Virus record (IMG/VR): IMGVR_UViG_3300009566_000006
Location: 1-56,345 of that record
Length of the DNA: 56,345 nt
Source of the DNA: a virus
Lineage: Duplodnaviria; Caudoviricetes
Direction: 5' to 3' (one strand)
Of this stretch, positions 1,000 through 52,227 are shown piece by piece (position 1 is the stretch's first letter; each line of letters starts with the position of its first letter). The notes beneath the pieces are model-generated. The model worked only from the letters and a program-made list of their open reading frames with translations. It was not told the DNA's origin and did not search any database. A program made the translations under genes and the position numbers.

Positions 1000-1362
1000 A
1001 TGAATCAATTATTTATTGACAGCCCTCGACAATGTGATACGATGACGATCAAGGAGGTCGCTCAATATCTTGGGAAAAGCCTTTGTTGGGTTTACAAACA
1101 CTGGCAAGAATTGGGCGCTACGAAGATCGGGGGTTCTCTTTTTTTCCCAAATAAGGAGAACCTATATGAGCGTCTATTTCTCAAAGAAGCGGAAAGGGTG
1201 GCGTTACGATTTCAAACTGAACGGGATAAGGTATTACGGAAAATGGGAGAAGACAAAAAAGGATGCCCGAAAAGCAGAAGCAAAACGAAAGGAGGAAATA
1301 AGAAATCCGAAGCCAACTGTGATGATGCCAACAGACATGGACTTCTTGGAATTAGCAAATAA
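1000..1362 (+). CDS. Excisionase-like HTH protein overlapping the integrase 5' end
   Basis: MTIKEVAQYLGKSLCWVYK is a MerR/Xis-type HTH; lies directly before the integrase. Confidence 0.7.
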   Translation: MNQLFIDSPRQCDTMTIKEVAQYLGKSLCWVYKHWQELGATKIGGSLFFPNKENLYERLFLKEAERVALRFQTERDKVLRKMGEDKKGCPKSRSKTKGGNKKSEANCDDANRHGLLGISK

Positions 1363-2272
1363 AAGACTAGATTGGTTAATTGAGTATAAAACAGAGATGT
1401 ATTTCAGAGCCAACAAGAATCTTTTTAAAAAATTAGTTGAAAATTGGGGAGATTTGAAATGTTCGGAGATCACAACCCCAATGGTCCAATCCTTTATATT
1501 GGAGAAAGCAAAATACTCTCATGAAGTGGCTAATTACGATCTTAGACTCATGAGGGCTCTTTTCAATTATGGGAAAAAGAGCAAATTGATTTCATGTGAC
1601 CCGACTGAAAATATCCAGTTTCTTCCAAGCGAAAGGAAAGTTAAGTATGTTCCGACTGAACAGGATATTCAAAAAGTTCTTTTCGCTGCTGATGGCGATA
1701 CAAGAGACTATCTTATCGTCATTAAGGAGACATTTGGAAGGGTAAGTGAAATAAATAGGCTTACTTGGGAAGATGTAGATTTTCGGGACAAATCAGTGAT
1801 CCTAAAAACTAGGAAAAAGCGAGGTGGTAACTTGACACCACGAAAAGTACCAATGACTGATCGCCTATATAGGATACTCCAGAGGAGGTACGAAAATAGG
1901 AACAAGTCCCTTCCTTGGGTTTTCTGGCATCGGTATTGGAGTACAAAGAACAGGCAAATGGTTGAAGGATCTTTTCAATATCGAGGCAAGCTTATGGATA
2001 TTCTTTGCGCAAAGGCGGGGGTTAAGGCTTTTGGATTCCATGCCTTGAGACATGCCGGTGCATCTGCGCTGGATAACGCCAAAGTACATATTGGTGCTAT
2101 TCAGAGGATTTTAGGGCATGAGAAAAGGGAAACAACTGAAATTTACCTGCACAGCATTAACGAGTGTGAACGAGAGGCTATGCGAATTTATGAAATTCAC
2201 ACACAAATTCACACACAAATGGAAAACGGGGCTAGCCAGGAATTGGGAAAACAGGCTAACCCCGCGGAATGA
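1166..2272 (+). CDS. int: Tyrosine recombinase/integrase
   Basis: Catalytic motifs GRVSEI, FHALRH, LGH and Y (TEIY); AAGGAG RBS before ATG at 1166. Confidence 0.95.
   Translation: MSVYFSKKRKGWRYDFKLNGIRYYGKWEKTKKDARKAEAKRKEEIRNPKPTVMMPTDMDFLELANKRLDWLIEYKTEMYFRANKNLFKKLVENWGDLKCSEITTPMVQSFILEKAKYSHEVANYDLRLMRALFNYGKKSKLISCDPTENIQFLPSERKVKYVPTEQDIQKVLFAADGDTRDYLIVIKETFGRVSEINRLTWEDVDFRDKSVILKTRKKRGGNLTPRKVPMTDRLYRILQRRYENRNKSLPWVFWHRYWSTKNRQMVEGSFQYRGKLMDILCAKAGVKAFGFHALRHAGASALDNAKVHIGAIQRILGHEKRETTEIYLHSINECEREAMRIYEIHTQIHTQMENGASQELGKQANPAE
2193..2220. repeat. Tandem AAATTCACACAC repeat, probable integrase arm-type sites
   Basis: aaattcacacac-aaattcacacac-aaat about 55 bp from the tRNA 3' end. 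Confidence 0.6.
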
Positions 2273-2273
2273 T

Positions 2274-2349
2274 TGGTGGGCCGCCGGAGACTCGAACTCC
2301 GGACCAATTGATTAAGAGTCAACTGCTCTACCGACTGAGCTAGCGGCCC
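2274..2349 (-). tRNA. tRNA-Lys(CTT)
   Basis: Reverse complement GGGCCGCTAGCTCAGTCGGTAGAGCAGTTGACT-CTT-AATCAA...GTTCGAGTC...CCCACCA; full cloverleaf with CCA. Confidence 0.97.
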
Positions 2350-2374
2350 GAATTTGTTTTTTAAAGAGGTGGCC

Positions 2375-2403
2375 TTTTTATTTAAAGCCGGCCGTTTTGT
2401 CAA
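2375..2403 (-). promoter_or_regulatory. Sigma70-type promoter for tRNA-Lys
   Basis: TTGACA-17 bp-TAAAAA on the minus strand. Confidence 0.6.
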
Positions 2404-2472
2404 GCTTAAAAGGAGAGCGCCCTGCCCTCCCCGTTAAAATTTCTGATATCCTCTCGGAACATCCTCATTTCC

Positions 2473-2500
2473 TGGTGCGCCTGGAAGGACTCGAACCCTC
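2473..2500. repeat. Prophage att core (duplicate of tRNA-Arg(TCG) 3' end)
   Basis: TGGTGCGCCTGGAAGGACTCGAACCCTC is identical to 52272-52299. Confidence 0.97.
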
Positions 2501-2551
2501 CGGGTCAACTCTAAACTTATAAATCAATTACATTTTTAACGCAACATTTAA

Positions 2552-2572
2552 TTTGTAGACAGTTTGTAGACA
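2552..2572. repeat. Integrase arm-type sites (TTTGTAGACA x2)
   Basis: The same TGTAGACA pair occurs at 52212-52230 near the other att core. Confidence 0.75.
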
Positions 2573-2729
2573 ATCCGGAAGCAGCTTGCGGGGATACTGA
2601 CAAAGACCCGACAAAGCAAGTTCAATTTCGGGGATGCAGAAAAAAGACGTTTACGCGCTTTCTGCAACCCCGTCTTCATCCAGGGGGAGCGGTTCAATGC
2701 TCTCCACAACCTCCCCGTTCGCCTCAATA

Positions 2730-3134
2730 TCAGCCAGCGGACGATTCGTTTATTATGAAGATGTTGTTATACGGCCCTCCCGCATATATTTCCGTCGCCG
2801 GGGTTGAACAGATATAACTGACCGTTGCATCTGCCTGACTGATCGCGGGAGAGAACAGGACCAGGACGACCAGAAATACCAGGATATATTTTGCTACTGC
2901 CGGCGCCGCGGGAGCCTGGTTTACGGTTTCGGCCGGTTTGTCCCCTGCGGGTTTGTCAGCTGTGAAATAAGACTTAACCGAACCGCATATAAACGACGCC
3001 AAGAGAAGATAAGGCGCGTAGGGGGCCAATGCCGGGAGCTGGCCCGAATAAGCCGCTACGGACCCGCACAGAGAGCCAAAGGCCCCGATTCCCGAAACAG
3101 TGGTTTTCCAATCTTTGAATATTTTCATTTGCAA
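2730..3134 (-). CDS. Membrane protein, holin-like
   Basis: KDWKTT N-terminus plus 2-3 hydrophobic segments; in the lysis region. Confidence 0.5.
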   Translation of the reverse strand: MQMKIFKDWKTTVSGIGAFGSLCGSVAAYSGQLPALAPYAPYLLLASFICGSVKSYFTADKPAGDKPAETVNQAPAAPAVAKYILVFLVVLVLFSPAISQADATVSYICSTPATEIYAGGPYNNIFIINESSAG

Positions 3135-9272: not shown

Positions 9273-9371
9273 AAGGCTGATATACCATAAATAAGCACGG
9301 GTGCATATATTAAATTCATGAGATCTCCTCTATATAAATTGATATATTATTGAATCTGTACGGGAGTTAAA

Positions 9372-9599
9372 ATGAACAAGTACGAATTAGAACGCCTTCG
9401 AGATCATGTTTTAATGGTATGCGAGGGGTTGGCAGATCCGAATCCGGGAGTTAGAGAGGCTAGTCTTTCAGAGTATGGGGACCTGGTTGACGAGTTCGCG
9501 GCCGCTTTTGAATCGCAGACGGCGCCCCAACAGATCGAGACAGCCAGGCGAGATCCTGAATATTTTATCAGGTTAATTGATCTAGCTCGGGGTATTTAA
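9372..9599 (+). CDS. Hypothetical protein (island)
   Basis: 75-aa ORF with GGGAG RBS, opposite strand to the tail operon. Confidence 0.5.
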   Translation: MNKYELERLRDHVLMVCEGLADPNPGVREASLSEYGDLVDEFAAAFESQTAPQQIETARRDPEYFIRLIDLARGI

Positions 9600-9906
9600 A
9601 AAAAGAAATTACATTGACCCTCCTTACGGCAGGAACACGCTTTCGTGGGCAGTTACTTTATCCGATTAAAGCCTTTTCCACGAGGCCCCTACTCAGCCAC
9701 GTACCTCCGCAGCGGGTTGCTCCCACGTCCTCGGGAGTGACCCGTATGCTTTATTTCTATTTTTTTAATCTCATTCCTTGTCTTTTTTAAGCAGATTAGG
9801 AAATATTGTGTTTGCTTTTACACAACTAATCTGGTTGTATTACTTCATTAAATTCAAGTTTAAGGAAGATTATATGATTCAAGATTAAAAAAAGGAGGCA
9901 AATATT

Positions 9907-30971: not shown

Positions 30972-32075
30972 ATGGCTCACAATATCGCAAACATCAGCGG
31001 ACAAGACGCAGTATTCACAGGCAGGGGAATCCCCGCATGGCATGCTCTCGGAAAAACGATTGAGGGGGTTGCTACCTGGAAAGAAGCTATTGAACTTGCT
31101 GGTCTGAATTGGAGAGTTGAGAAACGCAGCCTTTACAATGACCGGGGGGAAGCGGTCCCCGCTTATGGGATCTTCCGGGACATGGACAATGCTTTTTTAG
31201 GGACTGTTGGGGAGAGATACCAGAGCATACAGAATCAAGACGCTTTTGAATTTGTAGACGCCCTAATCGGCAATGAGGAAGCACACTATGACACCGCGGG
31301 GGCGTTAGGTAATGGTGAAGTGATTTTCTGTTCGGCTTACCTTCCAAGTGCAGGTTTTGAAGTTGTCCCCGGCGACATTCACCAGACCTATTTACTTTTC
31401 AAAACTTCCCATGATGGATCACTCGCGGCAGTCTCCAAATTAACGGATGTAAGAGTAGTTTGCCAGAATACCTTGAACCAGGCACTTAGAAATGGCGGAA
31501 ACGCGGAAATTAAAATCAAGCACACGAAGAACGCCGTTGAAAGGATGGAACTTGCAAAAAAGCTGGTTGCTTCCGGGCGTAAGACTGCCGATCAAATCAG
31601 GAACAAATTCCGGGAACTCTCACAGAAAGTTGTTACACGCCCGGCCCTTGAAGATATCCTTAAAAAGCTTTTCCCCGCTGATGAAAAGGGGAACCTGCAC
31701 ACAAAAACGCAGAACAATATAACCGATATTCTGAACCTGTACGAATCAAACGACAATAACGCTTTTCCGGAAATCCGCGGGACTGCCTACAATCTCATCA
31801 ACGCAATTACTGAGTACACGGATAAGGTCCGGACTGCAAGAGGGGGCGGCATTGAGGGGATGAATCAGGCACGGGCAACGTCGGCACTGTTCGGGTCCGG
31901 GGACACTTTCAAACAGGTTGCCTTTGATACCATTTACCAGGCGGCAAGCGGCATGCCCGACAAATCGAAACAGGTCTTTTATGCTCCCGGTCCGATTGAT
32001 GATAACGACGGCAACAGCACACAGGACAAGGGGAACAATCCTATAGATGCACTTTCACAGATTGTTGATTTCTAA
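30972..32075 (+). CDS. DUF932/DUF945 (TIGR03299-like) phage/plasmid protein
   Basis: PAWHALG, AGLNW, TAGAL, SHDGS, RVVCQNT and NAITEY motifs. Confidence 0.9.
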   Translation: MAHNIANISGQDAVFTGRGIPAWHALGKTIEGVATWKEAIELAGLNWRVEKRSLYNDRGEAVPAYGIFRDMDNAFLGTVGERYQSIQNQDAFEFVDALIGNEEAHYDTAGALGNGEVIFCSAYLPSAGFEVVPGDIHQTYLLFKTSHDGSLAAVSKLTDVRVVCQNTLNQALRNGGNAEIKIKHTKNAVERMELAKKLVASGRKTADQIRNKFRELSQKVVTRPALEDILKKLFPADEKGNLHTKTQNNITDILNLYESNDNNAFPEIRGTAYNLINAITEYTDKVRTARGGGIEGMNQARATSALFGSGDTFKQVAFDTIYQAASGMPDKSKQVFYAPGPIDDNDGNSTQDKGNNPIDALSQIVDF

Positions 32076-32164
32076 TTGCAGAAGGGTCCAGGGGGATCAA
32101 GTTCCCTGGATTAATGCACAAGCCCGGTCCTAAGTCCGGGCGATATGAAAGGGGGACCATAACA

Positions 32165-46797: not shown

Positions 46798-47043
46798 TTA
46801 CCCCCTTCTGATAAAAATGCCGTATGTGTTGCTTGATGGATCAATGCCTGGCCTACCGTTGTACTCGCTTATTATATTGTTGCTGTGGGCTTGTAATGCT
46901 GCCTGGCCCTGCGGAGATTTAAGCCAGTTCTGGAATTCTTCCCTGTTCATACGCATTTCAATTCTCAGTTCCAGAAGAAAACATTTCAGCCACTTTTTAT
47001 AATCAAACCCTTGTCTCAAATATGCACCTGTCCCTTGTCTCAA
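46798..47043 (-). CDS. Hypothetical protein, first gene of the leftward early operon
   Basis: ORF start lies in the 24-bp duplication next to a palindrome copy; start uncertain. Confidence 0.4.
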   Translation of the reverse strand: MRQGTGAYLRQGFDYKKWLKCFLLELRIEMRMNREEFQNWLKSPQGQAALQAHSNNIISEYNGRPGIDPSSNTYGIFIRRG

Positions 47044-47055
47044 ATATGCACCTGT
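47008..47055. repeat. Perfect 24-bp tandem duplication
   Basis: CCCTTGTCTCAAATATGCACCTGT x2. Confidence 0.95.
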
Positions 47056-47273
47056 GCTTATAATTGGGTAAAAAAAATGGAACTTCCTTACTGCTTATGT
47101 CTTTATTGACATAATTGTTAAGCTTTGTATATCTGGTCACGTTTTTATTAGTGTTTGTATATTGCGATAAAGTATATACATAAGATATCAGCATAAATAA
47201 TATGGCACCCGTGCTTATGCGGACCCATAAAAAAACGGACTAATATCTAATCCGTTTTCCTATGGGAGCCGCT

Positions 47274-47678
47274 TTAAGATTTCTTCCAATGCTTTGCGAG
47301 TTTTTTAATGTGATTCAAAAAGTCCGGATCATCTACAATCTGGCCGAACAAATCCAGGTTAGCACGAATCTTTGAATCACGATTAATCGCTTTCTTTTGG
47401 TCTTCTGAAAATTTTTTTCCTGTCCTTTTCTCGAAATCCTGCGGCATTAAACTAAGACCTCCCAACAGATTAATAAAGTAGTAGGCGGAAATGTCTCGCG
47501 TACCGTTATTGAATTCGCTATGCCTTCTATAAGGTGTACTCTGGTTGGGAAATGATTTCTCCATCCATTCTACAACGCCTAGCCCCTGCTTAGATGCTTC
47601 AGCCTTGAGATCGGGCCAAAACTCATTAAAGTTTACCTCTGGTTTTCGTGAGGCCCTTTTAGCTTTAGGCTTTTCCAT
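47274..47678 (-). CDS. Putative phage repressor (divergent XRE-like HTH)
   Basis: HSEFNNGTRDIS resembles an XRE recognition helix; flanked on both sides by palindrome copies. Confidence 0.55.
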   Translation of the reverse strand: MEKPKAKRASRKPEVNFNEFWPDLKAEASKQGLGVVEWMEKSFPNQSTPYRRHSEFNNGTRDISAYYFINLLGGLSLMPQDFEKRTGKKFSEDQKKAINRDSKIRANLDLFGQIVDDPDFLNHIKKLAKHWKKS

Positions 47679-47774
47679 TTCTCTTACCCCGCATGTGTAG
47701 TTTTAGGTTCAAACCATTTACCCCGTTGACGTGATCGGAAGGATATCAAAGCGAAAAATTAAATGCAAGCCAAA

Positions 47775-47864
47775 ATAAGCACCCTTGCCAATAAACTGAT
47801 ATAAAATAAATCGGCACCTGTGCGTATTTTTGGCTTGACTTGTATAGGCACCCCTGCTTATAAT
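47775..47864 (+). promoter_or_regulatory. Sigma70 promoter with three palindromic operators
   Basis: TTGACT(47835)-18 bp-TATAAT(47859); palindromes at 47775, 47810 and 47844, the last between -35 and -10. Confidence 0.8.
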
Positions 47865-47950
47865 CCGTCCCGCGTTTGAGAAATGAGTTTTTAACCATTC
47901 ACCTTTTTCTATAGGAGGCCGCATGAGGTAGAGATTCAATCATTTGTAAC

Positions 47951-48006
47951 ACCCCTGACGAGCCGGTGAGATTCCGGCGAAATCCCCTGGATACGGGGGA
48001 TCGGGT
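47951..48006 (+). ncRNA. Hammerhead ribozyme, type I
   Basis: Stem I ACCC/GGGT; CTGACGA core; stem II GCCGG/CCGGC; GAAA; stem III TCCCCT/GGGGGA; AUC cleavage triplet (cut after 48002). Confidence 0.88.
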
Positions 48007-48054
48007 TAAAAAAGTTTTGTTCTTTCCATTCTCTATACTGAATTGTTTGCTTAG

Positions 48055-48650
48055 TCCAGAAACGGCAGCATTCCTAATTGAAAGGGAAATGGCTCCCGGA
48101 AGTGTAGCGGCGGTAATTCGGTTGTAAAAAGGGAAACCTTCTGAGGCTCTTATAATAGTCAGGGTGCGGCAAGTCCTATATCCCGTTGCTGGCCGTCTTC
48201 GGATCGTTGGCAGGCTTGAAGGGTAAGGAAGCGGGGAAGATTACAGTAAATTTAGCCGGACATTTGGAGTGGTAGAGGTGGGTAGCCGAAAGGCTTTGAT
48301 GTAAATGCCCGGCTCAGTTCGACCGGTCGGGGAACACAGATTAAGGTTATTTGAGCTTTCCTTTTTCTGATAGTACCCGGCCTACTTTAAGCTCTTTTGA
48401 ATATGGCCGGGAAGCTGGTGCAAGCAAACCGCTTTAATACATGCGGTCCAGGTGACGAAAAAGGCCCGGCCCTCAGTAATACGGGATAGCGGCGTGGAAA
48501 GCGGACACGCAAATTTTTACCGTTAGGCTATCGAAAAAGCCGAGTAGGATTAGCAACCTACCTATCCCGTTCTTGCTCATTTAATTTGCCATCTGGATCA
48601 ACCTCTCAGGGAGCTACCGGGGAGCTTCGGCAGGAATGCGGAATCCCCGG
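48055..48650 (+). ncRNA. Candidate structured non-coding RNA(s)
   Basis: No ORF of 60 aa or more; successive closed domains 48055-48203, 48254-48314, 48405-48471, 48481-48570 and 48617-48650 with GAAA/TTCG tetraloops. Confidence 0.6.
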
Positions 48651-48671
48651 AATTAATGAAGGAAACACAGT

Positions 48672-49019
48672 ATGGTTAATCAATGTTGTGAAGTCGTATA
48701 TGTCATTAAGGACGATCTAAAGCTTTGGAAAAAACCCTTTTTGTCTTTATGCGGAAAACAGAAATGTCCTGTATGCCAAAGATTCAGAGAATATGCGGAC
48801 CGTAATTCTTATGATTTTTTGCAGTACACAAAAGGGAGCAAGGTTCAATGGTTAATACCTGTTAACAAAAAAATCGAAGAAACAATTACTTCATTAAACG
48901 AAAAAGACAGGATCAGCTTTGTCCTTAAAATCCCTTCAAGTAAATTAATTCCTAAGTTTGTTTGCGAAAAGGATTCAATTTCCCTGGTCCATAAACGTTA
49001 TACAATTTGGCCGGATTAG
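48672..49019 (+). CDS. Hypothetical Cys-containing protein
   Basis: AAGGA RBS; CxxC. Confidence 0.5.
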   Translation: MVNQCCEVVYVIKDDLKLWKKPFLSLCGKQKCPVCQRFREYADRNSYDFLQYTKGSKVQWLIPVNKKIEETITSLNEKDRISFVLKIPSSKLIPKFVCEKDSISLVHKRYTIWPD

Positions 49020-49780
49020 AAATGAATCCCCGTATTGATTGTTACAAATTTATAACGTCCCATGAAAAATCTTATGGTTGTATGCCTAACATTTTTCGGG
49101 ACGAAAAGCGATTGCCGGACTTAACAAAAAAGAGGTATCCGGTTTATGGCTTTCATCTTGAAATACCTGAACCAGTTGAAACTCCTGAACCTGATTTTTG
49201 TTTTGAGACTGATAAAGAAAATGAAAGAAATTTTAAAATTTCAGCAATACTTGAGTTTTCTAAATCTCTTGCAATAGAAAGGATTAAGCATCTTTCTGAA
49301 CTTCCTAAAAGAGAGAAAAAGAAATTAGAAAAACTACTTCGGCTGGAAGAAGAAATAAAGGCACAAACATACCAAAGAAAACTACAGGCCATGAGCAAGG
49401 AACTTGGGAACGCTGAAATAACAAGATTGTTTCAGGAGTGTCTTAAAGAACTTCGAGAAGAACTTAAAATAGATGATTACGAAATGCAAGCAATGGACTA
49501 TTCGGAATGGGAAGTAATTTTAGATGAAGCAAAAAGAAGGGCCTGGAAAATATGTAAATTAGAACAGGATAAAATAAAAGAAGAAAGCAAAAAAGAAATT
49601 ATAGAACTTTCAAAATTATTATTTAAGAAAAAGAATAAGAATAAGGAACCTTTTATTGCTGATCCTAAAGAATTTAAAAAGCGCTTAAACAGGCTATGTT
49701 CAAAATTTCGCATAGACAGGGATTCTTTCAATGTTCCAGATATTACGATGTATAAAATAATCATTAATCATTATATGTAA
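49007..49780 (+). CDS. Hypothetical K/E-rich coiled-coil protein
   Basis: 257-aa AT-rich ORF. Confidence 0.55.
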   Translation: MAGLEMNPRIDCYKFITSHEKSYGCMPNIFRDEKRLPDLTKKRYPVYGFHLEIPEPVETPEPDFCFETDKENERNFKISAILEFSKSLAIERIKHLSELPKREKKKLEKLLRLEEEIKAQTYQRKLQAMSKELGNAEITRLFQECLKELREELKIDDYEMQAMDYSEWEVILDEAKRRAWKICKLEQDKIKEESKKEIIELSKLLFKKKNKNKEPFIADPKEFKKRLNRLCSKFRIDRDSFNVPDITMYKIIINHYM

Positions 49781-49791
49781 AAGGAGTATCA

Positions 49792-50070
49792 ATGCACCCC
49801 AAAATCAAACAGGCCATAGATAAAGCCAAAGATAAAACAAAACAGGCCATAAATAACACAGTGGACAAATTCTGTGTCCGCATTCTCCAATCAGACGAAT
49901 CCAGGGCCAAGAGGTTAGTTTCAACAGCCTACCCCGGCCGGAACATGTCAAAAAACCCGATCAGGAAAAAGAAAGAGGACCAGGAACAGGCGCCGACTCC
50001 GGAAAAGTTGATGGCAATGTGCGCTATGGCAGCTTCGTCTTATATTTACGTCAAAGCGCTTTTCTTTTAG
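49792..50070 (+). CDS. Hypothetical protein
   Basis: AAGGAG RBS. Confidence 0.55.
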   Translation: MHPKIKQAIDKAKDKTKQAINNTVDKFCVRILQSDESRAKRLVSTAYPGRNMSKNPIRKKKEDQEQAPTPEKLMAMCAMAASSYIYVKALFF

Positions 50071-50962: not shown

Positions 50963-51042
50963 TCATTAAGATATAAATTACATTGATAAGCACCCCTAAA
51001 TATAATATACCTTCCAGACAAATCCGAGTCGGGGGTTGGTGC

Positions 51043-52227
51043 ATGAAGGGGAAAATCCTTGAATTCCGTGGCAACAAAGAACATCCGATAAGATATGCGA
51101 TACGGATCTCCTGGAACGGAACAGATTATAAATTTTGGCATTACCCCGATGGATCAGGGGACCCTATCTATCACAGGGACATTGCCGAAGCTTTACTAAC
51201 ACAGGTCAGGGGCGCCATTGACCTGCATAATAAGGGGCGCTTCACATTCCGGCCTGAGTTTTATCAAAAGAAATCTCCACTATCCTTAGAGGCATATGCA
51301 AAAGTTTGGCTTGATTCATATCCGGCCAGTAAAAAAATGACAAAGAAGGGCTACCGGGCCGCGATCAAGCATGCAATAGAGTATGAAGGATTCGGGGCAA
51401 AGTTCGATATCAGGGGATTTAGCCTATCCAATCTTCAAACCTTTTATAACAAGCTCACTTATCAAAAAACAGAAACAGGCGAAAACGGGGAAAAGAAAAC
51501 CGTCACCCTGCCTATGTCCGTAAAGGGTAGGTATAACGTCCTGACAGCGATTAAAACAATGCTGCGGTATGCTTTCCGGGACGGCAAGCTTGACAAATTG
51601 CCGGCGTTCCCGGTACTGGAAAATCCCGCCCCCTTGGACACCCCTTATTTGATATTCCAAGAGCAACAGGAAATTCTTTCGCACATTCCCGAACGTCACA
51701 GGCCGATCTATGAAATGGGTATGGAGTACGGCTTTAGAATTGAAGAAGTCCGGGCCTTGAAGTGGGATTGCATTTCTGAAACCCATATTACAATAAGGCG
51801 CTCCATGCCGGAATATGAACTTTTGGAAACCACAAAAGAAGGTGACGCAAGGGTTGAAGAAATCACGACCAGGGCGCGGGATATTCTGAGAAGGGCCAGG
51901 CTAAACCCGAGTTGGAAGGGTTACGTTTTTACAGCCTCAAAACGGGGGGCTCCCTATGATTATAAATTCATGGCGCGGACCTGGAAAGCGGCCTGTGAAA
52001 AAGTAGGAATCGAAATCAAGATGTATAACGGATTCCGGCATTCATACTGCGGCCAGCTGGCAGATTTGGGAATACCGGCCGAAACAATCCAAAGGTGCGT
52101 AGGCCATAAAGACAGGCGTTCAACGGAAAGATATACCAGGCGGCAGAGAGCTTCAGAAAGAAGGGCAATTAACGAAATGCGCGGCCAGGTGATTCCTATC
52201 AACAAAAAGACTGTAGACATTTTGTAG
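51043..52227 (+). CDS. int: Prophage tyrosine integrase
   Basis: GFRIEE, YNGFRH, VGH and TERY motifs; next to the att core. Confidence 0.95.
   Translation: MKGKILEFRGNKEHPIRYAIRISWNGTDYKFWHYPDGSGDPIYHRDIAEALLTQVRGAIDLHNKGRFTFRPEFYQKKSPLSLEAYAKVWLDSYPASKKMTKKGYRAAIKHAIEYEGFGAKFDIRGFSLSNLQTFYNKLTYQKTETGENGEKKTVTLPMSVKGRYNVLTAIKTMLRYAFRDGKLDKLPAFPVLENPAPLDTPYLIFQEQQEILSHIPERHRPIYEMGMEYGFRIEEVRALKWDCISETHITIRRSMPEYELLETTKEGDARVEEITTRARDILRRARLNPSWKGYVFTASKRGAPYDYKFMARTWKAACEKVGIEIKMYNGFRHSYCGQLADLGIPAETIQRCVGHKDRRSTERYTRRQRASERRAINEMRGQVIPINKKTVDIL

Follow-up and report, generated by a model that had tools for sequence, protein, structure and literature searches.

Hundreds of hammerhead ribozymes have been described in bacteria, many of them flanking genes and lying close to integrase genes in prophages, which suggests the processing of long phage transcripts as their role (Perreault et al. 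2011, PMC3088659). A 2019 review still describes the purpose of bacterial hammerheads as undefined (PMC6765202). Here, we analyzed a 56,345-nt stretch of DNA, IMG/VR virus record IMGVR_UViG_3300009566_000006 (Duplodnaviria; Caudoviricetes), referred to below as the window, in which an operator-bearing promoter and a putative type-I hammerhead precede a long stretch poor in open reading frames (ORFs). Like the prophage hammerheads in the earlier survey, the ribozyme has a consensus core and an integrase gene within a few kb and would sit in a long phage transcript, with processing as its presumed role; unlike the hammerheads described there, it stands behind a promoter and a two-codon minigene, is followed by about 660 ORF-free nt and occurs as a single copy instead of an array (PMC3088659). 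We read the locus, at about an even chance of being correct, as the hammerhead-processed long untranslated leader of a rightward operon with the integrase gene at its end.

Two other kinds of phage RNA invite comparison. GOLLD and ROOL are large non-coding RNAs (ncRNAs) of prophages, while in phages P4 (CI RNA) and P1 (c4) immunity RNAs are cut from the leader of a repressor-controlled transcript. The locus shares with GOLLD and ROOL a large ORF-free stretch in a prophage, but unlike them it has no model match, folding signal or relatives. The leader idea is similar to that of P4 and P1, whereas here the longest complementarity between the region and the remaining phage is 13 nt; a trans-acting antisense RNA was rejected for the same reason.

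A predicted type-I hammerhead ribozyme

Judged by its sequence, the element at 47951-48006 is a genuine type-I hammerhead, and self-cleavage is predicted (Table 1). All core positions were found (C3, U4, G5, A6, N7, G8, A9, G12, A13, A14, A15.1:U16.1 and H17), and cleavage should take place between 48002 and 48003. Folded in isolation, 69 nt gave the three-way fold as both the minimum-free-energy and the centroid structure, with stem I open and stems II and III capped by loops; the folding z was -2.57, and 3 of 200 shuffles were equally stable. A covariance model (R1), built from 16 relatives with the window excluded, matched the window copy at 63.3 bits (E-value 2e-18) and detected no second hammerhead copy in the window. 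The first-pass annotation had proposed a hammerhead from the letters alone, and the complete core, the fold and the model match bear this out. As a candidate for the tertiary contact between stem I and loop II that speeds up cleavage, a possible pairing between AAUC (47937-47940) and GAUU of loop II was noted by eye; it also occurs in one relative (L006) and is inconsistent across relatives.

Searching the whole window against Rfam at gathering score returned no family for the region. With E-values up to 10 over 47600-48800, only weak hammerhead rows appeared, Hammerhead_3 (RF00008) at 15.2 bits against a gathering score of 48.5 and RAGATH-1-hammerhead (RF03152) at 16.8 bits against 56.3. The core and helices align with those of both families, but the scores fall under gathering. 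That the locus could not be assigned to GOLLD or ROOL, as first annotated, agrees with this search.

A 151-nt contig of a public sequencing run (X1), covering 47855-48002, ends exactly at position 48002. Its start falls within the promoter and its length is that of a read, the run type was guessed to be DNA, and the agreement with the cleavage site is probably a coincidence.

Table 1 Features of the hammerhead locus and its surroundings, in window positions.
Feature	Position	Strand	Description
Sigma-70-type promoter	47835-47864	+	TTGACT-18-TATAAT; 11/12 consensus positions
Operator copies (three)	47779-92, 47814-27, 47848-61	+	Spacing 35 and 34 nt
Operator sites	4467, 9291, 27262, 30628, 30895, 35561, 41648, 47044, 47205, 47779, 47814, 47848		Motif search
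Minigene	47913-47949	+	AGGAGG 47913-18, CCGC, ATG 47923, AGG, TAG 47929-31
Type-I hammerhead (predicted)	47951-48006	+	Complete core and three stems
Stem I	47951-54/48003-06	+	ACCC/GGGU, 4 bp; sequence, fold
Core	47955-61	+	CUGACGA; sequence
Stem II	47962-66/47974-78	+	GCCGG/CCGGC, 5 bp, loop UGAGAUU; sequence, fold
GAA and cleavage-site positions	47979-81; 47982, 48001; 48002	+	GAA; A15.1 (47982) : U16.1 (48001); C17 (48002); sequence, R1 alignment
Stem III	47983-89/47994-48000	+	7 bp, loop GAUA; sequence, fold
ORF-free stretch	48007-48671	+	~665 nt; GC ~0.50, G-rich on plus strand; contains D1-D5
D1	48055-48203	+	z +0.98, less stable than shuffles
D2	48254-48314	+	z -1.89
D3	48405-48471	+	z -1.23
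D4	48481-48570	+	z -3.57; 0/200 shuffles as stable
D5	48617-48650	+	z -3.49; 0/200 shuffles as stable
115-aa ORF	48672-49019	+	First after the putative leader; AGGA 8 nt upstream; heads row ending in integrase
134-aa orphan gene	47274-47678	-	Divergent; followed by hairpin with U-run at 47266-47224
Tyrosine integrase	50983-52227	+	Adjoins tRNA-Arg(TCG)

Relatives of the hammerhead and their gene context

We searched IMG/VR for the core plus stem II pattern and obtained 32 matches in 30 loci. The complete type-I architecture (stems of at least 3 bp and a UC or UA cleavage dinucleotide) was found in 22 matches and was lacking in the other 10. After four duplicates and two rows with long stem III insertions had been dropped, 16 rows remained for the alignment. 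In these 16 relatives 98.7% of cells were paired, compared with 30-45% in slid controls, a percentage inflated by the script-based preselection of rows for stems of at least 3 bp. The search pattern itself dictated stem II. Eight of the 15 pairs vary on both sides, comprising all five of stem I and three of the five of stem III, and none of 500 shuffles matched the covariation score. The loci of eight relatives likewise had no gathering-level match in Rfam, so the silence of Rfam on the window copy reflects a gap in its models and is not counter-evidence; the type-I group is beyond the reach of these models.

The window copy shares its core and stem II sequence with other IMG/VR type-I hammerheads such as L006, L023, L028 and L030. 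As in these, loop II has 7 nt (the same sequence as that of L006), stem I is within their range of 3-6 bp, the cleavage dinucleotide is UC and a stop codon directly adjoins stem I. The window copy differs in its flanks, which are dissimilar, and in its position, since the relatives are intercistronic. The core comes 4-21 nt after the end of a long ORF (74-194 codons) in 10 of 18 relatives. The next ORF of at least 50 aa starts 17-501 nt after the ribozyme, with a median of 39 nt in the 20 informative cases. Outside these loci, R1 found only two weak matches with broken cores in 151 Syntrophales genomes.

Other self-cleaving elements were noted along the way. The loci L010 and L007/L024 carry 7-8 hammerhead-like matches spaced about 0.3-1.8 kb apart, forming ribozyme arrays. 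The window also holds a type-P5 twister ribozyme at 32077-32139 on the plus strand (51.5 bits; gathering 37.6), immediately after a DUF932 gene (30972-32075), so the phage carries two different self-cleaving ribozymes.

An operator-bearing promoter and a two-codon minigene

The promoter at 47835-47864 is the sole match to at least 11 of 12 consensus positions on both strands of the window. Block-shuffled windows yield 1.3 such matches on average, and the position of the promoter therefore weighs more than its score. From this position we infer a transcript start near 47871. One of three closely spaced operator copies (47848-47861) falls within the spacer of the promoter and extends into the -10 element. 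Allowing at most one mismatch, the motif GCACCNNTGYNTAT had 18 matches at 12 window sites, compared with 1.48 expected, and none of 100 shuffles attained this number. The consensus of the sites is ATAWGCAC-SS-GTGCWTAT, and several are complete 18-bp palindromes. Compared with the ORF list, the sites are mostly intergenic, in short gaps or at operon starts. A search of IMG/VR for the full palindrome gave three single sites, which we took as chance.

On sequence grounds, the recurrent palindrome has the look of a target set for a phage-wide repressor or regulator, and it is reminiscent of the stoperators of mycobacteriophages. The divergent 134-aa gene is an obvious candidate for the regulator that would read it. 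The first-pass annotation had described a near-consensus promoter with a palindromic operator facing an ORF-poor stretch, and both the promoter match and the excess of motif sites agree with this. The layout is that of a repressor-controlled promoter, with a -35/-10 match overlapped by a repeated palindrome. Production of the RNA on induction, which was also proposed, is plausible on the basis of the operator layout.

A second plus-strand promoter-like site, TTGTCT-18-TATAAT (10/12), was found within 47008-47064 with the same operator in its spacer. It lies inside a perfect 24-nt tandem duplication (47008-47031/47032-47055) and points antisense into the 134-aa gene.

The Shine-Dalgarno (SD) sequence and two-codon minigene proposed between the promoter and the ribozyme are present in the sequence; AGGAGG itself occurs 27 times in the window. 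The frame of the minigene continues past its TAG to a TAA at 47947-47949, which abuts stem I of the hammerhead. This is the position where the relatives have the stop codon of the upstream gene, while here it closes the mini-frame only. A similar arrangement was observed on the minus strand, where a GC-rich ORF-free piece (9595-9760) ends in AGGAGG-GTCA-ATG-TAA followed by a T-run, in a gap that carries the operator at 9291-9308. This piece has no Rfam match and a folding z of -1.14, and could represent a leader device like that at 47913-47931.

The ORF-free stretch

In six frames, 47940-48671 (732 nt) is the longest stretch of the window free of ORFs of at least 60 aa, the runner-up being 331 nt. 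The absence of plus-strand ORFs of this size had been noted at first sight and was borne out, the largest ORF having 53 aa and overlapping the ribozyme. Reading TAG, TGA or TAA as sense opened no convincing frame. An alternative genetic code was thus rejected, as recoded stops gave nothing convincing and the four tRNAs of the window are all ordinary. No convincing SD-led small ORF was found in the stretch, and small proteins were rejected since the ORFs lack a credible SD. Searches of the ten longest stop-to-stop frames against Pfam and PHROGs (E-values up to 1) gave only noise, and tblastn of 23 frames against 163 fetched loci showed nothing beyond the ribozyme.

The GC content of the stretch (about 0.50) is near the phage average of 0.466. 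CCGG occurs 11 times, compared with an average of 5.4 per 732 nt, which is inside the spread of the bins. We found no plus-strand terminator-like site within 47000-49500, hence none between the promoter and 48672; no tandem repeats in 47600-48800; and no iterons or AT-rich unwinding block in 47940-48671. Tandem repeats upstream of a toxin gene, as in type III toxin-antitoxin systems, were likewise not found, and PADLOC gave no match for eight neighbour proteins. Covariance models for group I and II introns, RNase P and transfer-messenger RNA (tmRNA) had no match, and the region is without tRNA or tmRNA.

The first-pass annotation had read the stretch as a string of at least five separately closed domains (D1-D5) within a polycistronic ncRNA precursor. 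All five helix pairs are present, but the folding stability was not above chance. Because the domain ends had been chosen post hoc at complementary stretches, a matched control was built from the 426 window segments of 30-150 nt that are closed by a perfect stem of at least 7 bp, 409 of which lie outside the region and the tRNAs. These 409 segments had a mean z of -1.46, with 8.6% at or below -3.5. The eight stem-closed segments of the region had a mean z of -2.2, with two at or below -3.5; this difference is not significant, a rough binomial estimate being about 0.15. The 801 nt as a whole had a z of -0.61 on the plus strand (7 of 20 dinucleotide shuffles as stable) and -0.94 on the minus strand. 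In 21 sliding 120-nt windows on the plus strand the mean z was -0.02, with two below -2, compared with a mean of -0.06 and 7.1% below -2 in 479 background windows (plus strand, 1-19 kb). Perfect stems of at least 7 bp numbered 16 in kb 48 compared with a mean of 8.9 per kb, which is inside the spread of the bins.

The region as a whole thus folds no better than its dinucleotide shuffles, the comparison that had been set beforehand as able to refute the structured precursor. A structured polycistronic precursor is further disfavored by the missing plus-strand terminator, Rfam family and homologue, and processing by RNase P or RNase Z by the lack of any tRNA-like element in the region. We regard the ncRNA idea as unproven rather than refuted.

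Four GC-rich 7-mers, GGUCGGG (48325), CCCGGCC (48377), GGCCGGG (48405) and CCCGGCC (48465), could pair either 1:2 and 3:4, or 2:3. This attenuator-like set (48325-48471) has no U-run after it, and CCGG-rich words are common genome-wide.

Searches for homologues and transcripts

No DNA homologue of the region was found among the INPHARED phages or the PLSDB plasmids. In 339 Syntrophales genomes there were only chance matches of about 30 nt, and the five closest host genomes had none. Among the 30 hammerhead loci, similarity is confined to the ribozyme. We also examined 45 loci of phages that share the PD-(D/E)XK nuclease (about 50% identical); these showed no similarity and no GC-rich gap, the corresponding gaps being 405-730 nt long with a GC content of 0.25-0.41. 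Neighbour routes via the 134-aa protein, the 115-aa protein and the integrase led to no loci. A single-sequence structure model of D4 (R2) found nothing in 151 Syntrophales genomes or in 75 phage loci. In an exact-seed scan of metagenomes, the hammerhead-plus-stem-I pattern had no matches, and a 20-nt seed from D3 hit three contigs that share only 22 nt, consistent with chance.

Two wastewater sequencing runs hold small parts of the locus. The RNA run covers 47269-47457 only. The run of guessed DNA type contributed two low-depth contigs. No contig spans 48003-48671, although contigs cannot show absence.

The prophage and its neighbouring genes

The record comprises an integrated prophage (about 2501-52271) plus host flanks. 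A 28-bp direct repeat (2473-2500/52272-52299) marks the prophage ends, and its right copy is the 3' end of tRNA-Arg(TCG). The right flank contains genes for HpaB-family and Fe-ADH enzymes, whose closest relatives are in Syntrophales/Smithella-like genomes (95% and 84-90% identity); by these sequences the host is Syntrophales-like. Structural, recombination and replication genes occupy the minus strand as far as the 134-aa gene and are read leftward, while a row of small genes runs on the plus strand from 48672 to the integrase. The ribozyme locus lies in the divergent control region between them, with the right end of the prophage some 3.6-4.4 kb away. The remainder of the prophage has an intact appearance, and 100% completeness is given for the record. 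Left of the 2473-2500 repeat, a second integrase (1070-2272), a tRNA-Lys and a ParB_N gene were noted around 1070-2349, which suggests another integrated element.

The 134-aa gene is followed by a terminator-like hairpin with 19-nt arms and a U-run on the minus strand. Neither the 134-aa protein nor a 257-aa protein had any relative among 5.8 billion clusters. The 134-aa protein resembled helix-turn-helix (XRE-like) proteins only in a language-model and structure look-alike search (Atlas 0.92-0.93; TM score 0.42-0.49, below the bar). Pfam searches, also with relaxed settings, and PDB sequence searches for a helix-turn-helix in it were negative, and its AlphaFold2 model (pLDDT 52.8) was too poor for a fold search. 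The genes for the 115-aa and 257-aa proteins, the first after the putative leader (region 48650-49850), are orphans with a GC content of 0.28-0.36, compared with 0.466 for the window. By composition, they look like recently acquired cargo.

Weighing the explanations

As a hammerhead-processed leader, the locus would form the rightward arm of the divergent control region of the prophage. In the lysogen, the promoter is probably shut by a protein that binds the palindrome. Once open, it would give one long transcript through the 115-aa gene towards the integrase, a read-through that we infer because no plus-strand terminator precedes the 115-aa gene. The hammerhead would begin about 80 nt into this transcript, and cleavage after C48002 would remove a 5' piece of about 132 nt, carrying a 5' triphosphate, the strong SD and the two-codon minigene. 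The remainder would be a 5'-hydroxyl mRNA with a 5' untranslated region of about 670 nt. Such ends are the products of the standard hammerhead mechanism. The ribozyme would act as its relatives appear to in other phages, processing the transcript shortly ahead of the functional unit that follows, and the new 5' end may reset how stable the downstream message is or how well it is translated. The 670 nt, without statistical sign of a chain of folded domains, would be an untranslated leader or spacer. They may be the remnant of a former cistron downstream of the ribozyme, and one or both of the local hairpins D4 and D5 might be regulatory.

Several observations weigh against this reading. The distance from the ribozyme to the next ORF is 663 nt, which exceeds that in all 20 relatives, where about 40 nt is usual, so most of the sequence is not accounted for by a plain leader. 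The GC content of the stretch is 0.50 compared with 0.33 in the genes after it, and the stretch is G-rich on the transcribed strand; high GC content and G-richness often mark RNA genes. D4 and D5 were each more stable than all 200 of their shuffles. In L009, a 144,840-nt IMG/VR phage contig, a hammerhead of the same type lies directly 5' of a tRNA-Leu that starts an array of six tRNAs (1340-2808, minus strand), including a tRNA with a CUA (amber-reading) anticodon, and this type of hammerhead is thus able to precede RNA genes. The only RNA contig falls inside the 134-aa gene, and the preselection of alignment rows noted above flatters the pairing of the relatives.

Most of these observations bear on an explanation that we consider improbable, namely that the roughly 665 nt freed by the hammerhead are one or several structured ncRNAs, made on derepression and possibly processed further. 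Besides the length of the ORF-free stretch, its raised GC content and G-skew on the plus strand, the stability of D4 and D5 and the 16 stems in kb 48, this explanation draws on the lack of any small ORF with a convincing SD and on the defined 5' end that a hammerhead sets, as ahead of the L009 tRNA. It is contradicted by the z values of the whole region (-0.61), the sliding windows (mean -0.02) and D1 (+0.98), and by the post hoc control, in which two of eight segments compared with 8.6% is not significant. An RNA of this kind would also need its own 3' end, but there is neither a plus-strand terminator nor a tRNA-like unit for RNase P or RNase Z; Rfam at E-values up to 10 gives the hammerhead only, and no homologue was found in phages, plasmids, the 339 Syntrophales genomes, the 75 phage loci or the metagenome seeds. 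A more specific proposal, which strikes us as quite improbable, is that the freed 5'-hydroxyl, G-rich RNA is itself the product, an orphan large phage ncRNA released upon lifting of the repressor. The mutually exclusive 7-mer pairings and the multi-branch element of D4 would then form a switch, or a scaffold acting on host or downstream excision genes. If true, this would be the first self-cleaving ribozyme serving as a 5'-maturation device of a large ncRNA of a bacterial virus.

The arrangement in the relatives, where the ribozyme abuts the stop of a long ORF in 10 of 18 cases and the next gene is usually no more than about 40 nt away, raises the question of decay. The hammerhead could be the relic of a cassette of gene stop, ribozyme and RBS-led gene (RBS, ribosome-binding site) whose following gene has decayed, leaving filler or unrecognized small proteins. 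The TAA at the same position, closing only a mini-frame, the random-like folding and the GC content near the phage average are in line with such a relic. The frames of the stretch, however, retain no match to Pfam or PHROGs beyond noise (ten longest stop-to-stop frames, E-values up to 1) and none to the 163 loci beyond the ribozyme, no small ORF is SD-led, and the rest of the prophage is intact-looking and rated 100% complete; we consider this explanation unlikely. An element acting at the DNA level, such as a replication origin activated or primed by operator-controlled transcription beside the recombination and replication genes, appears very unlikely. The stretch does lie where the gene strands and the cumulative GC skew switch, its transcribed strand is G-rich, and no replication initiator was recognized among the leftward genes scanned. 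RNA-based prophage origins reported in mycobacteriophages provide a precedent (PMC7157519). The skew switch, however, follows from the divergence of gene orientation, the missing initiator means little because many leftward proteins are unannotated, and 47940-48671 contains no iterons, tandem repeats or AT-rich unwinding block.

What stands firm is modest: another prophage hammerhead, belonging to a type-I group that the models of Rfam miss. A new phage RNA of several domains would be important if borne out, but its helices are no commoner or stabler than elsewhere in the genome. What is unusual is the placement of the ribozyme directly behind a putatively repressor-controlled promoter and a start-stop-like minigene, with orphan neighbours, in a phage of uncultured syntrophic bacteria. 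For the hammerhead-processed leader that we favor, this placement offers a clean setting for the question of whether cleavage alters the stability or translation of the excision operon on induction.

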